A stretch of DNA of 64,000 bases, from the NCBI GenBank assembly GCA_964385615.1, contig CAYLPP010000003.1, forward strand, positions 139,288 through 203,287, in the 5' to 3' direction. Origin of the DNA: an uncultured bacterium. Lineage in GTDB: Bacteria > Omnitrophota > Omnitrophia > Omnitrophales > Aquincolibacteriaceae. The stretch's first letter is position 1, and the number at the start of each line of letters is the position of its first letter. The translations under genes were made by a program, and so were the position numbers. A model generated the notes under the pieces. That model had not been told where the DNA came from and made no database searches. It was given only the letters and a program-made list of their open reading frames with translations. This document shows, piece by piece, positions 5,479 through 54,659 of the stretch.

Positions 5479-6016
5479 AATGCAGACCGTCCTGCCTGCG
5501 GATGTATTGCACTTCTTTTTCGGAACCCCCGAGTTTTTTCAGCGTTTCTTTTTCCTTCGCCATACATTCCAGCTCTTCTTTCTGCTGAGCTTCATACGAA
5601 GGATTCCCGTAGCCGTTTTTGGCGCGCATTTCAACATGGCAAGCTTCGTGCACAAGTATCGCTCCTAATCCAGGTCCGGAAGTTTTATTCAAAGTGTCTT
5701 CTTTTAAGTAAATTGTAGGCCTCTCGGAATAAGCGCTGACAACGGAGCGGTCTCCTTTTTCAATCGCTTTGATATATTTCAAAACATATTGAAGGTCATA
5801 ATAAGATTTTTTCTTGAGGAGTTTCAAAGCGGAATCCACCCGCCCGCAGAAAGCCATCCCCCCTTTAACAGGAATCCCCATGATCACAGATTCGTTTTTG
5901 GGATGTTTAAACGGCTCAAGATAATCCGTGTTCGGGTCTTTCTTCGCGTCAGCCGCGCCCGCGCTGACAGAACCCAGGAACAGCGATAGGATTAGAAAAA
6001 TGATGTTTTTTTTCAT
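5420..6016 (-). CDS. Small secreted protein with an HExxH motif, a putative zinc-metallopeptidase-like protein.
   Basis: Signal peptide (MKKNIIFLILSLFLGSVSAGAA). ILVHEACHVEM contains HExxH. Confidence 0.45.
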   Translation of the reverse strand: MKKNIIFLILSLFLGSVSAGAADAKKDPNTDYLEPFKHPKNESVIMGIPVKGGMAFCGRVDSALKLLKKKSYYDLQYVLKYIKAIEKGDRSVVSAYSERPTIYLKEDTLNKTSGPGLGAILVHEACHVEMRAKNGYGNPSYEAQQKEELECMAKEKETLKKLGGSEKEVQYIRRQDGLHFDTNKDGKYDRTDYEKQTW

Positions 6017-6055
6017 TCTCCTTAAGTATCGGACATCTGGATTTTTTCCGAAACG

Positions 6056-8089
6056 TTATTTGCGGTCTTTGGGAGAAATATCAATCGTGATTTGGGTTTC
6101 GGAACGCCCGGAAGGAGACGCTTTTAACGGCAGTTCGTAGCGGACCTGGTCAAACAGGCAAATGGAAGAATCCTTACGACAGTAATAAAAAACGCCGTCG
6201 AGAGTCAGCGTGTTTTCCCCGGGTTTCACCATGAGCGGAATCTGAAACGGAAGTTCACGGCGCTCTTTATCAATAATCTTGGCGTCACCGCTGACATACA
6301 CGATCATCTTTCCGTCAGACTTAACATCCACGTGAATCGGCGCGTTATGCGTGAATTCGTAACCCTTCGGCAGTTCGAACGTCACATTCAGAAACGTTTT
6401 ACCTTCGCGGATTTTTTTCTCGCGGAGCTTCACCAGACGCCCGTGAAAATCTTTAAGCAGATGCTTCGCCAGTTTCTCCATTCCCTTCAGCTCCAGCGTA
6501 CTGACTGTACCCGCGCCTCGGTCAATCACCCGTATCTGATGATTGTTCGTGTCGGCCACGTAAATTTTGCCATCCAGGACCGCGGCACCGCCGGGCTCAT
6601 AAAATTGAGCTTCGCTTAAACTTCCGTCTTTCAGTCCGTGCTCCCCGGTACCCGCGTAGGTCTTGCTGGTTTTAGAACCCGGCGCGATGATTTTAATTTT
6701 TGAATTGTACGTATCCGCGGTAATCAGATACATCCCGTCCCACGCGACTCCCAGCGCGTGCTGAAGCCTCGCGGTTTCACGTCCTCCGTCAATATCCCCG
6801 AACTCAAAAAGATCTTCACCGATCAAAGTTTCTACATTTCCAGCGGGATTCAAATCCGCGGCACGCACCGAACTGACTTCGCTGTCCGCGAAATAAAGCT
6901 TTGATCCGTCAGTCGTAATCCCGCTCGGCTGTGCCAGCGCGGATGAAAGCAAAGGGCCGTCCACGCGGGCTTCAGCGCCTGAACCGGCAAAAGGCTCGGC
7001 GTCCCAAGTTTCAAGATCCGCTTTCCAAAGCTGATGAGAACCGGCCATGGCGATATAAAGTTTTCCGTTCAAAACCAGAAGGTCCCACGGAGAGTTCAGC
7101 GGAACATCGGTTCCCCGTCCGCGCAAACCTTCGATATAGCCGGCTTTCTTTCCAGTACCCAAGACGGTCGTCACTTCTCTCGTCTTAAGGTCAGCCCGGC
7201 GCACCAAATGATTTTCCGTATCCGCGATATAAAGCAAATCTCCATCCGCGAACATTCCCTGAGGGTGATTAAACTCCGCGTTCTCAAACCGTCCGTCCTT
7301 AGCGCCTTCGGCTCCGTTACCGATAGCATCCAGAATATTTCCGCCGGCATCCGCGATCAAGATGCGGTTATGGTTGGAGTCACTGATGAAAAGTTTTTTA
7401 GAAACGGGATCCGCGTGAATTTTCCCCGGGAATGAAAGCAGGGTCTTATCCTGAGCTTCTTTTTCAAGCGCGAACTCAACCGGCCCGCGTTTGAGCTGGC
7501 CTTTGGCGTCAAAATAACGGATGGTCTCAGCGATCAGGCCGTCAAAGAGGTCAAAAACATCTTCGCCCGACTGCGCGGCGATAATCCTGCCGTTGGGATT
7601 GATAAGCACAAGCGTCGGCCAGGCATGAACGCCGTACTGCTGCCAGACTTCCATTTCAGAATCGTTGACGACCGGGTGCTTGATTTCATAACGCATGACC
7701 GCCTGGCGGATGGAATCCGTATTTTTTTCATTTTCGAATTTGGCGGAATGGACGCCGATCACAACCAGCTCCTGCCCGTATTTTTCTTCCAATTTTTTCA
7801 GGTCGGGAATGACGTGCATGCAGTTGATGCAGCAGTAAGTCCAAAAATCCAGGAGAACAATTTTTCCGTGAAGACCTTTAATGGAAAGGGGTTTTTCCGT
7901 ATTAAGCCACTGGAGGCCTGAGGGAAACTCAGGCGCGCGCACAAGGCCTTCAAAGCGGGTGTCGAAAGTCTCGGGGCGGTCGGGTTTTGATGCCATAGCG
8001 GAAAGATCCGGGTTACGCGCGGAGGCGAACACAACAGTCAGAAGGCAGATGAGCCCCGCCGTAAAACGTGAAGGCCTTTTGCTTTTCAT
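6056..8089 (-). CDS. Secreted thioredoxin-fold (TlpA/redoxin-like) protein fused to NHL-repeat beta-propeller domains.
   Basis: Signal peptide. CxxC redox motif (WTYCCINCMHVIP). Repeated NHL-like units (FNHPQGMFADGDLLYIADTENHLVRRADL, YVADTNNHQIRVID). Confidence 0.75.
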   Translation of the reverse strand: MKSKRPSRFTAGLICLLTVVFASARNPDLSAMASKPDRPETFDTRFEGLVRAPEFPSGLQWLNTEKPLSIKGLHGKIVLLDFWTYCCINCMHVIPDLKKLEEKYGQELVVIGVHSAKFENEKNTDSIRQAVMRYEIKHPVVNDSEMEVWQQYGVHAWPTLVLINPNGRIIAAQSGEDVFDLFDGLIAETIRYFDAKGQLKRGPVEFALEKEAQDKTLLSFPGKIHADPVSKKLFISDSNHNRILIADAGGNILDAIGNGAEGAKDGRFENAEFNHPQGMFADGDLLYIADTENHLVRRADLKTREVTTVLGTGKKAGYIEGLRGRGTDVPLNSPWDLLVLNGKLYIAMAGSHQLWKADLETWDAEPFAGSGAEARVDGPLLSSALAQPSGITTDGSKLYFADSEVSSVRAADLNPAGNVETLIGEDLFEFGDIDGGRETARLQHALGVAWDGMYLITADTYNSKIKIIAPGSKTSKTYAGTGEHGLKDGSLSEAQFYEPGGAAVLDGKIYVADTNNHQIRVIDRGAGTVSTLELKGMEKLAKHLLKDFHGRLVKLREKKIREGKTFLNVTFELPKGYEFTHNAPIHVDVKSDGKMIVYVSGDAKIIDKERRELPFQIPLMVKPGENTLTLDGVFYYCRKDSSICLFDQVRYELPLKASPSGRSETQITIDISPKDRK

Positions 8090-29500: not shown

Positions 29501-32500
29501 CGAGATTCCCTTGCGAAGTGCGAATTTGTTTGGAAATTAAACTGCCATCCTCATTATAAATTTCATCTGAAAGCAGAACCTGCCCGCTCTGGAGAATCAT
29601 CCATGTCTTTTTCTCTGTATCCCCGCCGGCAAGCGCCGTGTATTCCGTCACCGTTTCGTCATAGAAAGAAGCATAGGCAGAACCTTGGTTGACAGGCTCG
29701 TTCTTGCGCTCTTTCAAATAAACGCTTCTCCCCTGCGCGTCAAAAGTTTCCTGGCGGACAATTCCACCTGAGTCCGAAACCATAATCGTCAACTGCCCTT
29801 GAGCATCCGTCTCATAGGAGGTCCACTTCTCGGTGTAATGATACTTCTCAAAATGCAGAAGCAGCTTGCTGTACGCATCTGCCGGGTACTCCGTCTGAGC
29901 CGGAGAAAAATTCGAAGTCCAACGAGCTGCACCTTTGGACACACGGAATTCATCCAATTGACCGTGAAAGGAAGAAATATACCCGCTCCCGCTATAAGTC
30001 CCGCCCATAACTGTCGTGAAGGACCCGGAAGGCATATCGCCAGAGGCCGTTGAAGACCCTACGGCAGTTCCATTAATATACAGCGTAAAACTGTTCCCGT
30101 TTCTCACGAACGCAATGTGCGACCATGTCCCTGTCGGCACCGTGCTTCCGGTCACACTTACGTAAAGCTGACCATTTTTTTCAGCGTAGGCATGAAGCTG
30201 TCCGCTGGCATCCAGATAAAGAGAAAAGTTATTATTTAGGCTTCCACCGGTATACTGCGACCACAGTACCTGCTGATTACCCATCGCTTCCGGCTTGGCC
30301 CAAAAATCAATCGTGAAATTATCAGAACCATATTGGTAGTCAGAACCACTGCCGGCATCAACTCTTAGCATATCGCCGGCCCCATCCAGGGAAAGCGCAG
30401 TGGCTCCAAATTTCCCAGGTCCCGCGACATGGCTGTCTCCCAAAACCGTTAAACCTTCCAGCGGATTTTCTTCCGCCTGACGCTCTGAAACGTACGTCTG
30501 CTGTCCAGTTGCATTGTATTTTTTGATACCTACAATACCGTCGGCATCTTGTTCAGTCACTGTCAAATTCCCCTGCGCGTCCGTCGAATAATCCGTCCAT
30601 CTTTCGGTATAAGCGCTCCCCAAAACCTGCAGATTCGAAATCAAAGGATAATCCGAATTTCCAGAACCGTTTCTTCCGACCATTCCATCAATCAAAACAT
30701 AACGAGCCTGAATTTCGGAAAAATCAGCGGAGTAAATCCCCTTGCCGGTTCTGTTCTGAACCGAAGCAACTTCCGTGTAGTTAACGCCGTCAGCACTGAC
30801 TTTAATATGGAAATCCTTGATGTAATTGCTAGAACTACTCTGATCAGATAAAAGAATCTGTTTCAAATCATAAAGTTGCCCCAAATCCACCTTCAGCCAG
30901 CGGGGCGTGGAATCAGCGTACGTATTAGCGAGCCAAAAAGTGGTTGAATTTCCATCAATCGCGTTCGAAGCTTCCCTGGAGGAATCGTAAGCACCCGATG
31001 AAGTCGCTGTTCCGGTTTTAGCCCAGTCTTGAAGCTGATCGGTTTTAAATTTTTGATAGATGACCCGCCCCTGAGCATCAAATTGTTCATCAACCAGCGT
31101 ACCGGGAACAGCTGTCTCCACGAAACCTGATGCTTCCTCAGAGCTTTGAGTCCTCCCTGCCGAATAAGCGGCCAGAAGCGGATTATTGGCGCTCCCAAAG
31201 CTCTCCGCCCAGGCACGAAGCCCGGCTTCATCGGTGAAACGTTTCTGCAGATCCCTCCGCAGATCAAAGGCCGTTTTTAATTCCGGGCTCAGAATTTCAG
31301 ATTGAACGGCATAATCCGCCAGACGAGGATCTTCAAGATAACCGGCTTCTTTAGCCCAATCTGCCAGAGTTTTATTCTTCCAGCGCCCGGCAAGAAGCGA
31401 TTTCTTTTGCGGATCTGAAAAAATCATCTGAAGATCAGGCCGGCTTTTCCAAATTTTATAAAGCGCGTTCTGTTCCATTACAACGTTACCGCGGGAATCA
31501 TACTCTCTCAAAATCTTGAAGTTTTTCTCCGCTATTGAACTTTCAAAAAGCTGCATTTCATCAATTTTAAGCAGGCCGGAACCAAACGCGCTAACCCGAA
31601 GATAGCTGGCGCCGATTTCCGGAAATTCAAAGTCATGCCACTGCTTCTTGACGGGACCCGCCGATTGATCCACAACGGTTGTCCAGTTTTCTCCATCTTG
31701 AGAAACTTCAATGCGGTATCCGGCGGTTGGATTTTCTTCAGAAAAAAACCGGACACGGGATAAATTCACACAGCCTCCAGCGGGGCAAGCTTTGGAAGAG
31801 TCAGAAAAAAGCCGGGATTGATCAGCCCCATTAAAATGGAGGAGGAGTTTAGTGTAGGCATCGGTCTGATACTCACCGGCCGGAACGGTAAAATTATTTG
31901 TCCAGCGCGCTATACCCTTTGACATGCGAAATTCATCAATCGAGCCGTGAAAATCCTGCACGTACCCCTCAAAGCGAAGCGTTCCGATCTGCAGAGGATT
32001 AGACGTATTCGTCGTACTGTAAATCCATGTAGCCTGCGCCACTTTTACGCCATTCAAAAATAAAGCGATCTGGTCGCCTTGACGGGCTACGGCAATATGC
32101 TGCCACTGCCCTGCCACAATCGCGTTCGGAGAACTCAGCAACTGAACATGCTGATGAAAATTGACATCCCCGTTCCTTACCGCCGCTCCAAAAAACGCGT
32201 GAAGCGTTCCATCCGCGAGGATACTAATTCCGTTATAAGCAGATCCATTTTCATAGTCCCAAACTGCTAAGGCTTGGGTTCCGCTGATTACATCCGGTTT
32301 TGCCCACATATCCACCGTGAAATCACCCGTCCCGAAATTCCAGTCATCGCTGTTGGGCAGCGTCAGATAATCCCCGGAACCGTCAAGTTTCAAAGAGGCA
32401 GTTCCCAACTTAGGCGCTGTCGTGGTCAAATGCGAGTCGCCAACCGCATCCACAGACTTCGTATCAGCGAAATCAAAAACTAAAGATTTCTCTTCATTAC

Positions 32501-35500
32501 CGGACAAAGTGACTGAAGCCCCGGTATCCAGACTGCCGTCAAAAAGGTAATTGATCTTATCCGCTTTCGTGGAAGCGTCCGCCCAGCCGGCGCCTGAAAC
32601 TCCAACCCCGAATCCAGTATCGAGTAAATTCTTCGTTACACTCACTTCATCAGACGGAGTCTCACTAAGATAAGCTTTTTTGATATTACCGTTCGCATCC
32701 AGATCATAGGAATAGTAGGTGACTTTTCCTGAGTCATCAATTTGTTCAATAACCCTTCCATTCAGATCTTTGATTTCTCCAAAAAATTCCGTGGTCATAT
32801 CAGGCCCAGAACCACGGGTAGTAAGCTGATAGGTTCCAATCTGATTACCCAGAGCGTCATACTCATAAGAGTACCGGGTAACCTTCCCCTGACGGTCGAC
32901 GCTTTCAACAAGCTGTCCTTCTCTGGGGAAAGAAAACACTGTCTGCGTTTCCATCATGGTCTGAGAACCTGAAGCCCCGTTAAAATGGAGGAGAAGCTTG
33001 GTGTAGGAATCCGTCTGATACTCGCCCGTCGGAACCGTAAAATTGTCAGTCCAGCGCGCTATGCCCTTTGACATGCGGAATTCATCAATCGATCCGTGAA
33101 AGTCCTGAACATACCCCTCAAAACGCAGCGTTCCAATCTGTAATGGATTCGACGTATTGGTCGTGCTGTAAATCCATGTAGCCTGCGCCACTTTCACGCC
33201 GTTCAAAAACAAGGCGATCTGGTCTCCCTGCCGGGCCACCGCAATATGCTGCCACTGCCCCGCCACCACCGCGTTGGGAGAGCTCAAAAGCTGAACATGC
33301 TGATGGAAATTAACGTCTCCATTTCTTACCGCCGCGCCGAAAAACGCGTGAAGCGTTCCATCCGCGAGAATACTGATTCCGTTATACGCCGATCCATTTT
33401 CATAATCCCAAACCGCCAGCGCCTGGGTCCCGCTGATAACATCCGGTTTCGCCCACAGATCCACCGTGAAATCACCCGTCCCGAAATTCCAGTCATCGCT
33501 GTTGGCCAGCGTCAGATAATCCCCGGAACCGTCAAGTTTCAATCCTGTCGGACCCAATTTCGCGGCGCTATCGCTTAACTGCGCATCCCCTTGAAATGTC
33601 ACGGGAGCACTCGAAGGCACCGTCCGCTCATCCGAAAAATCAAAGCGCCGGGTCGTCGTGTAATCTACCACGCTTTCCGGCGTGGTTTTATGGTGAGCTT
33701 CAAAAACACGCGTAACATTCCCGAGAGAATCTTTTTCGTAAGTAAACGTTTCAGCCGACCCGCCAATTTGATATTCAGAAAGGGTTTCCCCCAGAACGTT
33801 AAAGGTTCTTTTCACGGTGCTGGTCACAGGCCATCCCGCAGGAGGATAGATCCTCACTTCATCAATATTAAACTCACTCAGACCGGTCTGCGATGCCGTC
33901 GCGGTAATACGTATAAATTTCGCTTTAACAGGATTAAAGGTATCCGATTGAAGACCTTGATAAAAACCGGGGCCCGTTTTCTGAACCACGTTGTACCAAT
34001 TAACACCGTCCAAAGAAACATCGATCTTGTACTGCAAACCCTGACTTGGATTGAAATAGGTCTGCACACTGCCGACCGGTGCCGTTTCAGCAAGTTCAAA
34101 TGTCATAGAACCATTCATTCCGCTTCGAGCGTAAGCACTGAATTTCCCATCAAAAGCAAGCTCAGATCCTGAAAAATTACTGTTGTTGGAAGCGGACACG
34201 ATCGGAAGCGCGGTCGTTAGGTCATCCTTAGAGTTCAATCCGGCAGGCGTTCCCAATAAAACCGCTTTCAAAATTCCATCCTGGCTCACCAGCGAGTCCG
34301 TTCGTATTACACTTCCATCCACATCTAGAAAATCCTGATAGGTCGTTTCGGTATATCGGACGCCGTTGAAATGAAGCAAAAGTTTTGTGTATGGGTCAGT
34401 TTGATACTCTTCTGCAGGCGGAGTAAAATTACTTGTCCACCGGGCAATTCCTTTGGATACCCGCATCTCATCAATCTCGCCATTAAAATAACCGTGATAT
34501 CCGCCGTCATAAGAGTAATACCAGACCCCAATTTTCAAAGTCTGTGAACTTGAAATGTTACCGTTATCCGTTTGATCGCTGCCGACCTGAGTTCCATTGA
34601 GGAAAAGTTTCACCGTTCCGTTCACCCGCACCAGAGCCAGGTGATACCAAGAGTCCGTGCTCAGCGACGTCGTGTAATTAAATTGATCCGTTTGAGCGGA
34701 AGCGGTGATATTCACGTGAATCTTACTGAGCGAATCCATGTAAATCCGGATTCCTCCCCCGCCATAGGTTGCGTTATCGTAAAGAGTTCCTGGAACGGAT
34801 GTTCCGGCTTTGATCTTAAATGAAGTATCGATCGTAAAATCGCCGGTTCCAAAATTCCAATCGGCACTGGCGGGGAAAGTGAGATAGTCTCCCGATCCGT
34901 CAAAACTCGCGGAGCCTTCGCCAAATTTCGCGTCTTCAGCGACATGAGCGTCTCCAACGACCGTCACACCATTTCCAAAGCCATGGTTCCCTTCGATTTC
35001 CCGGTTAATTGTCTTGATAAGCTTTCCTTGCGCGTCCCGGATTTCCTGCTGAAAAATTCCAAGATTATCCGAAATGGAAGTTACTAAATTCCCCTGGGAA
35101 TCATTCGAATAAGCATACCAGTGTTCAAATTGCTGGTTTTTAAGGTAGGTAACCTGATTTTGAGCATTTCTGATTTCAGTTAAAATAACCGCACCGCCCG
35201 CTTTAACGGTTTTGGTTACATTCCCCTGAGCGTCCGTATCATAGGAAGTCGTCTGTTCGTCAAAATGCTGTTCATCGAAGTGCAGAAGAAGTTTTGTGTA
35301 GGAGTCTTCAACGTAAGAGCCCGAAGGAACTGCAAAATTAGACGTCCAACGCGCAATCCCCTTGGAAACACGGACCTCGTCCATTTGCCCATTCAAAGAA
35401 TAAATATACCCGCTCCCGCTGTAAGTTCCCCCGACAACGGTCGTGAAAGCCCCCGAAGGCATATCGCCGGAGGCCGTTGAAGAACCTACGGCAGTTCCAT

Positions 35501-44500: not shown

Positions 44501-47500
44501 GGAGGATGAAAAGCGGAATAGAAGTGATTCTGCTCTTTTCGCTATTTAAATAAACCTCAAGCCCATCGAGAGTAAAATTGAATTCCAGGTCGTAAGTCAT
44601 TCCCGGCTGAGGCGTCAACGGCGAAAGAATTTCGTCTTCCTGCTCGACACTAAATGAGACACCGTCAACCGTCTGAATCGCCGGACGTTTAACTTTTAAC
44701 TTCCAAAATCCATCCTCCAGAACAAGCTTCGCGGTTCCTTCCGCGGGCTTTCCCTCGACAAAAGCATCCGGCAAAGTGAAACCTGTCTCAAAAGAAGCCT
44801 GAGACGATGCGGAGTCATAATAAAACTGAACATGAATATCAGGGCGAGTCGCCCCCTGGGTGACGGGGTCAATATAGAAGGATGATTGCGGGAAATTCGT
44901 ATTTTCTAACAGCAAAGAGCGTTCATAAAAATTCTTATAATTCCCTTTTTCATCGGTACGGAGCATCCCGCTGTCAACCAGATCATCAAGGGAATCATCC
45001 GCGGCGCCCGCGTCAAAACTTGCCAAAGCACGCATGGCATCCAGGTTAATCTCCTCACTGTAAATCTCAGAAACCGTTCCATCGGCCTTATAGAATTTCA
45101 CCCGTATCAGCCTGCGCCCTTGTCCTTCCGGCAAATCTATCAGCGTGGTTTGTGTGTAGCTTTGAGGATCCGTAAAAGCACCGTCATCAACCGCGTAGCT
45201 GAATTGAGAAGGGTTCCAACCCGGCTCAGGGCCATCAAGCTGAAGCTCAAGCTGGGCATTCCCCTGAGTTAAATCCACAAACCGAGAAGCTTTGAATGCC
45301 GGCGGTAAATTTTGGGCGCCGTTGACGAGAGTGATGGTATCGCTGTAGCTTGCGACGTTTTGAAGAGCATCACGGACCTCAAACAAAACTTCTTTTTGCC
45401 CAGCTCCTGAGGGAAGAGTCAAATTTCTAGCCGACGAAAAATTCTCCCAGGAACTCCAAGCCGTTCCCCCGTCCGTGGAAAACCGCATCTGACTGACACC
45501 CGAACCGGAGTTTGGATCCGAAGCGCTTAGAGTCAGAGTGACATCAGCTGAGGAAGTTTCCGGCGCACCGTTATTAATCGTCACGGAGCCCGAAGGAGGT
45601 GTTGTGTCTAGCGTAATGCTGTCAGACGCATAATGAGTATTTCCGACCATGTCTTTGAGTGCGTAGTGCACCTGCTTACTTCCGTCCCCCGCGGGGAGGG
45701 TCAGGGTCTTCGAAGTTGAAAAATCTTCCCATCCCGTCCAGGTTTGACCGCCATCCAGCGAGAAAGTTATCTTATCGATTCCTGAAATGGCGTCTGATCC
45801 CGTTAAGGTCAGCGTGATATCCCTTAAAACCGTAAAGTCATCACCCCCGTTAATCTGAACGGTCCCCGTCGGCGCGGTCGTATCCAATTGCACGGTAACG
45901 GAATAAGCGCTCGACCACTGACCCGACAAATCTGAAAACTTCACATAAACTGTTTTTACGCCGTCTCCCGAAGAAAAGGTCCAGGACTTTGTCCCCGCGT
46001 AAGCCTCTTCAGCCGTCCAATTAACTCCGTCGCTTGAAAACTTCATTTTATTCAGCCCGGATCCCGCGTCTGAGGCTGAAAGATTTAAATTCGCTGAGAC
46101 TTGCGCGATATACTGCGCTCCGCCGTTTACATTGATAGACCCCGTTGGGGCAGCCGTATCCAAAATAATTGTTTTTGAAACGACCGTAGCATTCCCGGCT
46201 TTATCCGTGTATTTCACATAAACCGTCTTGCTGCCGTCACCGGAAGGCAATGTATAGGCCTTTGTGGAAACGATAGTTTCCGGAGTTGTCCAATTGACGT
46301 TGTCATTGGAAAAACTCATTTTATCCAGCCCGCTTCCGCTGTCAGAAGCCCCCAAACCCGTCAAATTGACACTGGTCGAAGCCGTATACTGAGCATCCCC
46401 CGCCAAGGTCATTGTGGCATTCGAGGGAGCAATCGTGTCCCGCTTAACGGTGCCGGAAACCTGTGAACTGGTTTTCCCGATGGAATTTTTCACCTTCACA
46501 CTGACGCTATTATTACCCTCCGAAGTTAAATTAATTGTCGCTGTCCAAGTAGTTGAACTATTCAAAGCGACCACTTCAACGTTGTTAATTAAAACGGAAG
46601 TGTTTGCTTCTTTAGTGCCGGACAATATAAGCGTTGTCTGAGTTGAATAGGAAGGAATTCCGGGAGATACACCTGGCACCGCGGGAGTGCCCACATCCAC
46701 CCCCTTCAGCCGGACTGTCAGAGAACCTGTTTGAACGGATGTATTTGCCTGAGCGACGATAAAATTAAGCTGTTTAATCTTAGTCTTATCAAGCGTATTG
46801 GAAATAGACGCCACAGGAAGCTGCCAAAACAACTCGCTGGAACTGGAAATTCCAGTTAGAGTCCAGGTATCAGTGACACCGTTAATATCGACAATCTCAA
46901 GACTGACAGAACTGCTTGCTCCCTTTAAGCCCATCGTAAGATTGGTGAATCCTGTAATACTCTGGGTTTCAACAGTGCCGGAGGTGCTTGCGTCGTCAAA
47001 AGAAACAGAAAATCCGGAGAACTCGCTTGAGTTGGTTACGCTGAAATCCATCGTGACCCGGTCCGATCCGGGAGAAGACAATCCGGTCGCCGGGGTTGAC
47101 CCGGAAACAAAGTAAGGCTGGGGATTTCCGCTTAAAGTCGTAACACTGGAACTGGACAGTCCTGGAGTGTTTGAGAGCGTTCCTCCCCGGCGTAAAGCGA
47201 TTTTCTCCTGCTCCTGAGCTTCGTTATACCGGTCCTGCTCAGCAATGAATTGGTTGAGTTCTTTTCTCGCCTCAACCTGACTGCCTTCCAACTCTGAGGC
47301 CTTAACAGCTTGCTCAAGCTTTTCAAGATAATCTTCAAGCAAAAGAGGATCCCCGGAATTAAGAAGCCCCTGATTATTGTAGGCAAATACCCCATCGTGA
47401 GTCACAACATACTCTGCGCTTTCGCCGGCTTCGTTAATGTCCAGACCGCTAGGGCCTTGTGCGGAATGCTCGTTGGGGTGGGTATGAGAAACAAACGAAG

Positions 47501-48302: not shown

Positions 48303-50945
48303 TCAACTTTTGGGAACCTTAAGGGCGCAAAACTTCCTTTTCAGCCATTTTTCAAACTCAACCGCAATGAAAACAATCGAAGAAATACCAATAGCAACAC
48401 CCAGTTCCCAAAGGGTCAAAGGATGAGTCTTGAAAATTTGATTCATGAAAGGAACATAAACCGTGGCCATTTGGAGGAAAAAAGTCACGGTCACCGCCGC
48501 CAAAAGGGATTTATTCGAAAATAAACCCTGGGTAAAAAGACTCTCCCTCTCTGAACGGATAGCCAGCACATGCGCCAGTTGGGAGAAGCAAAGCACGCAA
48601 AAAATAATAGATTGCCAATGCGCCACTCCTCTTGCAACCAATACCGCTTCAGAACCCAGAGTTAAACCGGCCATTAAAAGACCGGCCCAGATTACATGAA
48701 GGCCAAGACCGTGAGCAAACACTCCTTCACCTGGAAGCCTTGGAGGACGTTTCATCACATTTTTCTCCGCGGGTTCAGCGGCAAGAGCAAGACCCGGCAA
48801 TCCATCCGTCAAAAGATTAATCCACAAAATCTGAATGGGAAGAAAAGGTATGGGCAAACCCAAAAAGGGCGCCAGAAAAATAATCCACACCTCCGCAGAG
48901 TTTGTGGTCACTGCATAGCGGATGAACCTGCGCATATTGTCGTAAATTCTTCTCCCGGATTGCACCGCCCGAACAATAGTCGCAAAGTTGTCGTCCAGAA
49001 GAATCATAGAGCTGGCTTCCTTTGCGACGTCAGTACCGGTTACGCCCATGGCAACTCCAATGTCTGCGCGCTTTAATGCAGGCGCGTCATTGACTCCGTC
49101 TCCTGTCATTGCCACAAATTCCCCTTGATCCTGTAGGGCGGTTACAATTTTAAGTTTTTGATCTGGAGAAACTCGAGCATACACTCGAATCGTTTTAACT
49201 CTTTTCTCAAACTCAGCAAGTCCGATTTTCCCGAGTTCTTCACCGGTCATCACACCATCTTCGGCAGAATCTAAAATTCCGAGACGCAACGCTATCGCCT
49301 TGGCGGTGTTTGGGTGATCTCCCGTAATCATGACAGGCACAATACCGGCATCTTTACAAAGCCGTACGGCTTCCCGCGCTTCATCCCGGGGAGGGTCCAC
49401 AATTCCAATCAGTCCTAAAAAGCTCAGATTCTGTTCAAGCGTTTCCGGATCCATTGTTCCCGGTAACGCGTTCCACGCTCTCATTCCAATCCCCATAACC
49501 CGCAATCCATCGGCAGCCATTTTTTCCGCGGCCTTCGTCAATTCATCTTTAAGTGCCGTGGAAATATCCGAAGAACAAAAAATATTTTGAGATATACCGA
49601 CAATACATTCAGGTGAGCCTTTCGTGAAGGCGATAAAACCCCCTTTTGGACTTCTATGAAATGTAGTCATGCATTTTCGAACAGAATCGAAAGGGATTTC
49701 CGCGATCCTCGGGAATATCTTTTCAAGATCCCGCTTTTCGACTCCCCCTTTTCGAGCCGCCTCAAAAAGAGCCACCTCCGTTGGATCGCCGATAACGGCA
49801 CCCTTTTCCCCCGTGACAGCATCATTCGAAAGCGCCAGCCCCTGAAGAAAGGTTTGCCAGCACTCCCCGGCTAGAGGTTCCGGCTCCAGCTTTCCATCAC
49901 AATAAAATTTTTCAACCCGCATCCGGTTTAAAGTCAAGGTTCCGGTTTTATCCGTGCAGATATAGGTAACCGAACCGAGTGTTTCAACGGCCGGCAGTTT
50001 TCGGACGAGGGCTTTTTTTTGCGCCATCTTCCTTGCGCCAATGGCGAGCGATATCGTAACCACCGCCGGCAAAGCCTCAGGAATAGCGGCAACCGCCAAA
50101 CTCACGGCTGTCATAAACATTAAGAGTACGGACTCACCCCGAAAAACTCCCGTAGCGAATACGATTCCGCAAATAAACAATGCCGCCACTGAAAGGCGTT
50201 TTCCGAATTTTGCAAGACGCTTTTGAAGAGGCGTTTTAACTTCCCCCGCATCTTTCAGGAGGGCCGCGATTTTCCCAAACTCAGTGCTCATGCCAGTCGC
50301 AATGACAATACCACTCCCCCTGCCATAGGTCACAATCGTCCCTTTATAAGCTATATTTTTTCTATCCCCCAGAGCGATCGTTTCTCCCGCGATAGGCTCC
50401 GTTATTTTCTCAACAGGCACAGACTCCCCGGTTAAAGCCGACTCATCCATCCGCAGCTGCCTGGTTTCAAGAAGCCTAAGATCAGCCGGGGTAATTTGTC
50501 CGGCTTCAAGCAAAACCTTGTCGCCGGGAACGAGTTCTAAGGCAGGAATCACAATATTTTTTCCATCGCGTATCACGGTCGCGGAGGAGGCAGCCATTGC
50601 CTTAAGAGCTTCCATTGCTTTCTCAGCTCGGTATTCCTGAACAAAACCGATAATGCCGTTTAGAATGACAATAGCTAGAATCGCGATGGTATCTTTAACA
50701 TCTCCGATGAATGCTGATACAAGGGATGCGGCCAGCAGAATAACGATCATGAAATCTGTGAATTGATCCACGATCATCCCGGCAAGCTTCCGCTTTTTCC
50801 CAGACGGCAAAAGATTAGGCCCGAAACGGAAAAGACGTTCTTTCGCTTCTTCAGGGCTAAGTCCTCTCACTGTCCCGCCCAAATCATCGAGGACATCTTT
50901 AACCGGCATCATATGCCAAACTCTGGTTTTGTTATCTTGCGTCAA
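48303..50945 (-). CDS. P-type cation-transporting ATPase, type IIA/IIB Ca2+-ATPase-like.
   Basis: DKTGTLT phosphorylation motif, TGDGVNDAPALKRADIGVAMG hinge, TGES and PEGL regions, 10 TM segments, 880 aa. Confidence 0.9.
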   Translation of the reverse strand: MTQDNKTRVWHMMPVKDVLDDLGGTVRGLSPEEAKERLFRFGPNLLPSGKKRKLAGMIVDQFTDFMIVILLAASLVSAFIGDVKDTIAILAIVILNGIIGFVQEYRAEKAMEALKAMAASSATVIRDGKNIVIPALELVPGDKVLLEAGQITPADLRLLETRQLRMDESALTGESVPVEKITEPIAGETIALGDRKNIAYKGTIVTYGRGSGIVIATGMSTEFGKIAALLKDAGEVKTPLQKRLAKFGKRLSVAALFICGIVFATGVFRGESVLLMFMTAVSLAVAAIPEALPAVVTISLAIGARKMAQKKALVRKLPAVETLGSVTYICTDKTGTLTLNRMRVEKFYCDGKLEPEPLAGECWQTFLQGLALSNDAVTGEKGAVIGDPTEVALFEAARKGGVEKRDLEKIFPRIAEIPFDSVRKCMTTFHRSPKGGFIAFTKGSPECIVGISQNIFCSSDISTALKDELTKAAEKMAADGLRVMGIGMRAWNALPGTMDPETLEQNLSFLGLIGIVDPPRDEAREAVRLCKDAGIVPVMITGDHPNTAKAIALRLGILDSAEDGVMTGEELGKIGLAEFEKRVKTIRVYARVSPDQKLKIVTALQDQGEFVAMTGDGVNDAPALKRADIGVAMGVTGTDVAKEASSMILLDDNFATIVRAVQSGRRIYDNMRRFIRYAVTTNSAEVWIIFLAPFLGLPIPFLPIQILWINLLTDGLPGLALAAEPAEKNVMKRPPRLPGEGVFAHGLGLHVIWAGLLMAGLTLGSEAVLVARGVAHWQSIIFCVLCFSQLAHVLAIRSERESLFTQGLFSNKSLLAAVTVTFFLQMATVYVPFMNQIFKTHPLTLWELGVAIGISSIVFIAVEFEKWLKRKFCALKVPKS

Positions 50946-50970: not shown

Positions 50971-51966
50971 TCAGTTTAAAGTTGCCGTTAGATGAAAAGG
51001 ATGAAGGATAGCAAGTCCCGCGATATAAAAAGCGTAAAGCAAGATGAACACAAGACCCTGCGGCTGCTGAATTCTTCCTTTTTTCCAAAAAAATACCATC
51101 ATCGTAAGCACGAGTAAAAAAAGCCAAAAATACGAATAGTTCCGGGTTAAAGGATCAACCGACAACGGATGAATTACTGAAGCGATGCCCGTAATCCCTG
51201 CCAGATTGAGGACATTAGCACCCACAATATTTCCTACGGATAAATCGGAGGCGTTTTTTCGCGCGGAGATCACCGCCGTCACCAGCTCAGGCAATGACGT
51301 TCCTACAGCAATTACAGTAAGACCTACAATCATCGAGGGAATACCCAAAGCGCGGGCAATTGCGGATGCGCCAAAAACCAGGGCCCGGCTCCCCGCAATT
51401 ACAAAAATAGCTCCAATTAAAAACGTAAAAATCAGTTTTGTTAGAGAGCTCTTGCCTTTAGGCTCAAGAACGATCCCGTGAGAGCTCTTTTGCTTTTTGC
51501 GGACAAGAAGCTGATAATCGGAGTAGAGATAAACTACGGCGAGTAATAGTAAAATAGCTCCCGTCACCCGATTCAGCTGAAGAAACAAGGAGAAGAAAAC
51601 GACTCCAGAAGCCGCTGCAAGCATCCATAAAGCCCGGCGCCTAAAATCGGTTAAATCCACGGCTATGGGTTTAAGGACAGCGGAAATCCCAATAATAAGC
51701 CCTAAATTTGCAATCGTTGACCCTAAAGCATTGCCGAGCGCAATTCCGGAATCTCCAAGCCAGCTGGCGGTCACAGAAACAACCATCTCAGGACTTGTCG
51801 TGGCAAGACTTACAATCGTACTTCCAATCACAATACGGGGCAGGTCCAGAATCCGGGCAATATGGATACTGGCATCTACAAACAAATCGCCGCCTTTGAT
51901 CAGCAAAGCAAACCCTGCCACGACAAAGAAGATACTTATCAGCACCGTCCCTCCATGCCCTGTCAC
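50971..51966 (-). CDS. Na+/Ca2+ (CaCA family) exchanger, YrbG-like.
   Basis: Two alpha-repeat motifs (GSTIVSLATTSPEM.. / GNALGSTIANLGLIIGISAV; GTSLPELVTAVISARK; GNIVGANVLNL). 331 aa with ~10 TM helices. Confidence 0.85.
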   Translation of the reverse strand: MTGHGGTVLISIFFVVAGFALLIKGGDLFVDASIHIARILDLPRIVIGSTIVSLATTSPEMVVSVTASWLGDSGIALGNALGSTIANLGLIIGISAVLKPIAVDLTDFRRRALWMLAAASGVVFFSLFLQLNRVTGAILLLLAVVYLYSDYQLLVRKKQKSSHGIVLEPKGKSSLTKLIFTFLIGAIFVIAGSRALVFGASAIARALGIPSMIVGLTVIAVGTSLPELVTAVISARKNASDLSVGNIVGANVLNLAGITGIASVIHPLSVDPLTRNYSYFWLFLLVLTMMVFFWKKGRIQQPQGLVFILLYAFYIAGLAILHPFHLTATLN

Positions 51967-54581: not shown

Positions 54582-54659
54582 TGGTCGGGGCGGCAGGATT
54601 TGAACCTGCGACATCCTGCTCCCAAAGCAGGCGCTCTAGCCAGGCTGAGCCACGCCCCG
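54582..54659 (-). tRNA. tRNA-Pro (anticodon TGG) with encoded CCA.
   Basis: The minus strand reads CGGGGCGTGGCTCAGCCTGGCTAGAGCGCCTGCTTTGGGAGCAGGATGTCGCAGGTTCAAATCCTGCCGCCCCGACCA. It folds with a 7-bp acceptor (C1:G72, A73), D arm GCTC/GAGC, anticodon stem CCTGC/GCAGG with loop TTTGGGA, and T arm GCAGG-TTCAAAT-CCTGC. Confidence 0.8.

Follow-up and report, generated by a model that had tools for sequence, protein, structure and literature searches.

A probably old duplication of one LamG domain, with copies conserved by purifying selection, in a giant gene of an Omnitrophota-like bacterium

A 64,000-nucleotide (nt) stretch of DNA from an uncultured bacterium (assembly GCA_964385615.1, contig CAYLPP010000003.1, positions 139,288 to 203,287; hereafter the window) holds on its minus strand one open reading frame (ORF) at 23505-48032, which encodes a giant protein of 8175 amino acids (aa) in a frame unbroken over 24.5 kilobases (kb). 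The host is Omnitrophota-like and the giant protein is of the surface type, with five LamG_3 domains termed here L1 to L5 from the N to the C terminus. The third and fourth of these, L3 and L4, are encoded by near-identical blocks of DNA that the original prediction described as a recent tandem duplication still prone to recombination. The pair is probably an old duplication of a single domain, the two copies having been kept alike by strong purifying selection, and not an unstable fresh tandem.

Comparison of the gene with itself (blastn) aligns nucleotides 31824-32393 with 32973-33542 at 88.07% identity over 570 nt without a gap (E = 0), and a separate repeat search recovers the same two intervals. 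These are the high-identity cores of L4 and L3, respectively, each the partner of the other on the minus strand, and they are direct repeats in frame within the one ORF with an offset of 1149 nt, equivalent to 383 codons. The whole LamG domain measures 618 nt, with L3 being the upstream copy in gene orientation (aa 4815-5020; 32973-33590, minus strand) and L4 the downstream copy (aa 5198-5403; 31824-32441, minus strand). Over this length the two are 85% identical in nucleotide and 93% in protein sequence, the latter rising to ~97-98% over aa 4830-5020. The edges of the similarity are abrupt, with a 30-nt sliding comparison at the 1149-nt offset giving 23-30 matches of 30 within the block but only 3-14 beyond it, and the 579 nt between the high-identity blocks are unrelated sequence. 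The original prediction of a near-identical pair encoding LamG_3 domains inside the giant gene is borne out by this self-comparison, which has the off-diagonal match at the 1149-nt offset, and by Pfam, and an intragenic duplication of a LamG_3 cassette is supported. Its dimensions need revision, with the duplicated block being 570 nt, or 618 nt if the complete domain is counted, instead of ~640 nt, the identity 88% instead of ~90%, the offset 1149 nt instead of ~1130 nt, and the blocks starting ~20-40 nt lower and finishing ~90-110 nt earlier than first given. The term tandem does not fit, as only the LamG domain is common to the two places, the 579 nt between the blocks are unrelated, and Tandem Repeats Finder detects no array in 23000-48500. 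No further copy of the LamG cassette is present elsewhere in the 64-kb window.

Pfam Laminin_G_3 (PF13385) matches five stretches of the giant protein for a total of 324 bits, and the L4 segment scores 76.5 bits against this profile, the gathering cut-off being 27.6 bits. The domain boundaries used here were placed with a hidden Markov model (HMM) built from the protein's own copies. An AlphaFold model of aa 5140-5510 is all-β, with a predicted local distance difference test (pLDDT) score of 85-98 over the LamG part, in line with the β-sandwich (jelly-roll) fold of LamG. Its Foldseek matches in the PDB, which reach a probability of 1.00, are LamG-type carbohydrate-binding modules, PAPP-A LG, botulinum toxin (BoNT) HCN domains, pentraxins and laminin LG4-5. 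In the explanation favored here, L3 and L4 are paralogous LamG domains of the concanavalin-A-like lectin fold, the third and fourth of five in a central binding region.

The differences between L3 and L4 fall largely at third codon positions, with 16, 4 and 71 changes at positions 1, 2 and 3 (71 of 91 at third positions). By the Nei-Gojobori method the synonymous (dS) and nonsynonymous (dN) substitutions per site are 0.85 and 0.042 for the whole domain and 0.75 (bootstrap 95% confidence interval 0.53-1.09) and 0.022 for the core, giving an overall range of 0.75-0.85 for dS (bootstrap 95% confidence interval ~0.5-1.2) and 0.02-0.04 for dN. Half of the synonymous sites have changed, four-fold sites give a distance of 0.52-0.66, and the dN/dS ratio (ω) is ~0.03. 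As a yardstick for age, the ABC-F gene in the window was compared with its orthologs in the two nearest available relatives. The orthologs share 93% protein identity with dS of 1.40 and dN of 0.045 in one relative (L090), and 89% with dS of 1.58 and dN of 0.069 in the other (L089), the ω values being 0.03-0.04. The dS between L3 and L4 is more than half of the 1.4-1.6 that separates this genome from these relatives. Because dS stands at 0.75-0.85 and the changes are mostly at third positions, the copy is old and not fresh, and the recent origin first proposed for it is not sustained. The ~0.8 substitutions per synonymous site, set against a core protein identity of 97-98%, mean that both LamG copies are functional and under purifying selection. 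In the sister pair L1 and L5, dS is 1.05 and dN is 0.19. The ω of L3 and L4 is about six times below that of the sister pair and equal to that of the housekeeping ABC-F gene, and L3/L4 is unusually constrained, not unusually young. A diversity-generating retroelement pair, in which changes would gather at adenines of one copy and at first and second codon positions, was considered and rejected on the excess of third-position changes and on a transition-rich spectrum (44 transitions and 27 transversions) that lacks adenine specificity.

The flanks of the two copies differ. Upstream of L3 lies a complete discoidin domain followed by a YD-repeat linker. The spacer between L3 and L4 (aa 5021-5197; 32442-32972, minus strand, 531 nt) has no counterpart beside the other copy and carries YD/RHS repeats (Pfam RHS_repeat, 38.3 bits), with its final ~36 aa (32442-32549) matching the N-terminal part of a discoidin domain. 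On the other side of L4, beyond an 18-aa linker (31770-31823), is the C-terminal part of a discoidin domain (aa 5422-5499; 31536-31769, minus strand), which covers positions 55-114 of the 127 in the F5_F8_type_C profile. An HMM built from six other discoidin domains of the giant protein matches with its positions 8-43 just before L4 and with positions 37-123 just after it. Removal of aa 5198-5421 in silico leaves a single discoidin match spanning positions 8-123 with a score of 53.5 bits, whereas the C-terminal part by itself scores 41.5 bits. When the N-terminal part was shuffled 1000 times, its real score was never reached, and 9 of 214 other 48-aa segments score above it, 8 of these 9 overlapping other discoidin domains and being mostly their N-terminal parts. 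L4 appears from these profile matches to sit inside a split discoidin domain. A domain-sized copy placed inside a neighboring domain is not the product of unequal crossing-over of a tandem unit.

The course of events that would best account for this arrangement begins with a LamG-sized segment of ~190-206 codons, which would have been copied alone and placed 383 codons away by a non-homologous copy-and-insert process. The downstream copy would have landed in a loop of the adjoining discoidin domain. Since copying, ~0.8 substitutions per synonymous site would have accumulated while the core proteins stayed 97-98% identical, under purifying selection on both copies that would equal in strength the selection on a housekeeping translation factor, and one 84-nt stretch would have been homogenized later by a short gene conversion. 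The pair might provide two binding sites of the same specificity, and with them avidity, the ligand being a glycan or a protein carried by another cell or surface.

Several points weigh against an old duplication maintained by selection. The AlphaFold model of aa 5140-5510 does not rebuild a discoidin sandwich, with the N-terminal part having pLDDT values below 50 and the C-terminal part 57-72, so that the nested arrangement is a reading of the sequence. The proposed age comes from dS within one genome, as no ortholog was found (see below). For L3 and L4, the ligand and the role in avidity are both inferred. The base composition of the copies is also uneven. The GC content at third codon positions (GC3) of L3 is 0.60-0.61, the highest of any 190-codon window in the gene (mean 0.473, standard deviation 0.051), with that of L4 being 0.53, and at 39 of the differing sites L3 has G or C and L4 has A or T, with 19 in the opposite sense (binomial P = 0.012). 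A simple in-place duplication with equal later histories does not predict this asymmetry, and L3 and L4 may have had different histories.

The GC3 asymmetry counts in favor of separate origins, with one copy imported by recombination from a diverged homolog in another strain, species or gene, inserted beside the resident copy, and dS recording the divergence of the donor instead of the time of duplication. Such an import is also in keeping with the LamG domain being the sole sequence in common, with one copy lying inside another domain, and with the location of the whole gene in a lineage-specific block of ~29 kb (see below). The GC3 signal is modest, however, strong purifying selection on both copies is required here as well, and no donor was found. 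A protein query spanning L3, the spacer and L4 returned nothing closer than ~40% identity among 5.8 billion proteins, and the best matches in GTDB genome and JGI metagenome contigs were ~35% identical over the full length and 46% over one 63-residue fragment. An imported copy is unlikely. Searches of the protein collection, the GTDB genomes and the JGI metagenomes gave no ortholog of either the cassette or the gene. The protein search also failed to return the giant protein of the window itself or the fragment of it encoded by an independent Logan contig (L087), although the neighboring proteins of the same metagenome-assembled genome (MAG) were present. The index apparently lacks products that are very long or cut, which makes the absence of an ortholog there weaker evidence than it looks. 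A search with the last 976 aa of the giant protein gave only six matches at 29-38% identity, and all three of the named ones are from Omnitrophota.

Similarity of the copies through repeated gene conversion, with concerted evolution taking the place of purifying selection, was weighed from the distribution of synonymous changes along the core. The core contains 177 degenerate codons specifying the same residue in both copies, 56 of which use different codons, and the first 26 have no synonymous change at all (shuffle P = 0.001). This region corresponds to a patch of 84 nt that starts the block on its 5' side, located at 33459-33542 in L3 (aa 4831-4858) and at 32310-32393 in L4 (aa 5214-5241), both on the minus strand. 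The patch holds the 47- and 36-nt exact runs, contains one amino acid difference (A4843P) and has a second one (L4859M) at its border. In its simplest reading this candidate tract is probably the trace of one past short gene conversion, and nucleotide-level constraint may be an alternative source of it. The patch and the abrupt edges of the similarity are what concerted evolution would leave. Conversion wipes out synonymous and nonsynonymous differences alike, yet outside the patch dS is 1.01 and dN is 0.015. The synonymous changes among the other 151 degenerate codons are randomly placed (runs test P ~0.5), which argues against a conversion mosaic, and concerted evolution as the main cause of the similarity is quite improbable. 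The random placement argues equally against evenly spaced recoding, and selection for evenly spaced synonymous changes was rejected on the same runs test. It is a more speculative proposition that synonymous divergence would be favored since it stabilizes the repeat against deletion, and the random spacing gives no support to it.

The original prediction held that the duplication is fresh, that the copies still recombine, and that the number of cassettes, and with it the length or phase of the protein, varies. The copies are indeed in-frame direct repeats with an offset of 1149 nt, the patch lacks synonymous change, and the 93% protein identity of L3 and L4 is high for domains of this type. 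Several LamG domains per protein occur in 119 of 120 homologous matches, and the best within-protein pair in these 119 multi-LamG homologs has a median identity of 44% and a maximum of 83%. The dS of 0.75-0.85, the change at half of the synonymous sites, the unduplicated 579 nt between the blocks and the lack of an array found by Tandem Repeats Finder all speak against a fresh tandem, and the longest exact runs between L3 and L4 are 47, 36, 29 and 29 nt. Homologous recombination depends on exactly matching stretches of some tens of bases, and RecA-dependent exchange drops steeply at ~12% divergence. Exchange between L3 and L4 should be possible but rare. Ongoing expansion or contraction of the cassette is not upheld, with no exact run exceeding 47 nt and the single 84-nt patch being the sole trace of exchange. 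Phase variation also fails, since the offset of 1149 nt (383 codons) is a multiple of three and a crossover between L3 and L4 would remove one LamG domain and the spacer while leaving the protein in frame, a length variant and not an on/off switch, a frameshift switch being impossible. A fresh and still recombining tandem is very improbable and is already largely refuted by dS.

An assembly artifact, in the form of two strain variants joined in series or a longer array collapsed, is the least credible explanation of all: the sequence does evidently come from a MAG, its nearest named relatives are MAGs as well, and L3 and L4 have 23 31-mers in common, but the copies are separated by a unique in-frame spacer of 531 nt with its own domains, the ORF is unbroken over 24.5 kb, no 55-mer is shared, the codon-position pattern of the differences is that of real evolution, and the Logan contig L087 is 100% identical to the window at 22140-24008, the 3' end of the gene, ending 8 kb short of the repeats, so that the collapse or misjoin of these two copies against which the original prediction had warned is unlikely at the usual k-mer sizes. 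Additional identical copies may still be hidden in the assembly.

An old duplication under purifying selection has consequences for how the locus is read. With 88% nucleotide identity the repeat gives a fresh impression by eye, yet it proves old once codon positions are counted, and L3/L4 is not to be flagged as hypervariable, phase-variable or a likely assembly error. In the streptococcal alpha C/Rib and staphylococcal SasG/Aap proteins the repeats run head to tail at ~100% DNA identity and vary in number by strain. Repeated binding or stalk domains in a large surface protein are common to these systems and to the giant protein, whereas L3 and L4 have 88% identity, a dS of ~0.8, unrelated sequence between them and no array. 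The same LamG_3 subfamily motifs (FDGxGDYL, DWxFGTGDFT, SKGIARWTxNF and YTKLLLH) occur in multi-LamG proteins with a 'YTKLLLHF' linker from many phyla, but these proteins have 450-1450 aa and are without the discoidin or YD context.

Among long Omnitrophota proteins, repeats are reported in a 2026 preprint to be generally old, synonymous substitutions having dissolved the nucleotide tandems (10.64898/2026.06.07.730766). L3/L4 fits this description, being likewise one Pfam domain repeated within a very long polypeptide in an Omnitrophota setting, and provides a concrete example for the claim that domain repeats in these proteins are ancient. The two studies differ in scale, with the earlier one surveying proteins of at least 10,000 aa and the present one treating a pair at 88% nucleotide identity in one protein of 8175 aa, and neither LamG nor discoidin occurs in the text of the survey. 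Dockerin-type giant proteins of Omnitrophota, for which attachment to other cells has been proposed, were described by West-Roberts et al. (10.1101/2023.11.21.568195). In common with these, the giant protein is predicted to be extracellular and has dockerin/EF-hand calcium-binding elements and F5_F8_type_C repeats. It departs from them in having 8175 aa, one dockerin match, no TSP3, five LamG domains and YD repeats, and thus falls outside the dockerin type as defined there; LamG is not mentioned in that paper. The giant protein is similar to the adhesion-type giants known from this phylum. A bolder proposal, and a rather unlikely one, is that L3 and L4 form a maintained double lectin, held at 97-98% protein identity over more than half of the synonymous divergence from the nearest available relatives. 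They would make up a fixed bivalent unit, with one copy as a functional domain nested in discoidin, and the protein would serve attachment in a member of the Omnitrophota that may be epibiotic or predatory. For the field of giant adhesin-like proteins, a pair with an ω of ~0.03 and a copy apparently nested in a discoidin domain are minor points of possible interest.

A second duplicated module involves L1 and L5. The core of L1 (35223-35840, minus strand; domain at aa 4055-4255) and that of L5 (29796-30413, minus strand; aa 5865-6064) are partners at 76% nucleotide identity with an offset of 5427 nt. Both belong to a larger module composed of a discoidin domain, a YD linker, the LamG domain and a YD tail, located at approximately aa 3880-4330 and 5690-6140. 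The LamG cores are ~72-80% identical in protein sequence, whereas identity between the discoidin parts is no more than ~25% in a global alignment and 37% in a local BLAST alignment, and the LamG domain is therefore the most conserved part of the L1/L5 module too. This module is older than the L3/L4 pair. The remaining domain, L2 (aa 4360-4558; 34359-34955, minus strand), has 40-47% protein identity to the other four copies.

The giant protein as a whole is composed of Ig-like, YD/RHS, ILEI, dockerin/EF-hand, discoidin, LamG_3 and C39-like segments. The N terminus has a signal-anchor-like hydrophobic segment at aa 19-37, and the product is probably extracellular. There are ~8 discoidin (F5/8 type C) domains in addition to the five LamG_3 domains, an ILEI match and a single dockerin/EF-hand (Dockerin_1, 28 bits). 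The YD/RHS repeats score 137 bits with Pfam RHS_repeat and 71.9 bits with TIGR01643. An RHS/YD polymorphic toxin was considered and rejected, with the NF041261 RHS_core profile scoring 41 bits compared with a cut-off of 2000, and profile searches of the giant protein gave no match to an RHS-associated core domain or toxin family. Toward the N terminus, Ig-like repeats of ~93 aa each run at ~45030-46520 (aa 505-1000) with 40-47% protein identity; in DNA, 45940-46059 and 46213-46332 are 69% identical. The region has weak matches to Big_13 and OmpL47-type domains. At the other end, the last ~420 aa (23508-24770) are without a family match and contain the motif 'VDAHSQGTV', which is similar to the nucleophile elbow (GxSxG) of α/β hydrolases. 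Upstream of this region are a Peptidase_C39-like segment (24 bits) at aa 7279-7362 and, also in the C-terminal part of the protein, a hydrophobic segment at aa 7566-7584. Judged from the motif and the C39-like segment, the giant protein may end in an enzymatic or effector region.

The genes neighboring the giant gene are chromosomal housekeeping genes for heme synthesis, fumarase and ABC-F, and the named relatives of the ABC-F protein at ~60% identity are almost all from Candidatus Omnitrophota. Exact-protein look-ups identified three relatives (L088, L089 and L090). The giant gene is absent at the syntenic site in L088 and L089, and the L090 contig stops too early. The gene order in L088 is amylase-like, SelR, DoxX and GH39, in L089 the amylase-like and GH39 genes are adjacent, and in the window the same flanking genes are ~29 kb apart. 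The lineage-specific block between them (22956-51966) comprises a 181-aa ORF without a family match, the giant gene, a P-type cation ATPase (48303-50945) and a Na/Ca exchanger (50971-51966). The position of two cation transporters beside a gene whose product combines dockerin/EF-hand, LamG and discoidin domains suggests a possible link to calcium. Near the same neighborhood, L089 has a different very long gene (L089:1-1471) with a product of at least 4411 aa that matches protein kinase and glycosyltransferase family 5 profiles, and long genes therefore vary between close relatives at this locus. The sole tRNA gene in the window, tRNA-Pro (TGG) at 54582-54659 on the minus strand, lies ~2 kb past the edge of the lineage-specific block and not at its junction.

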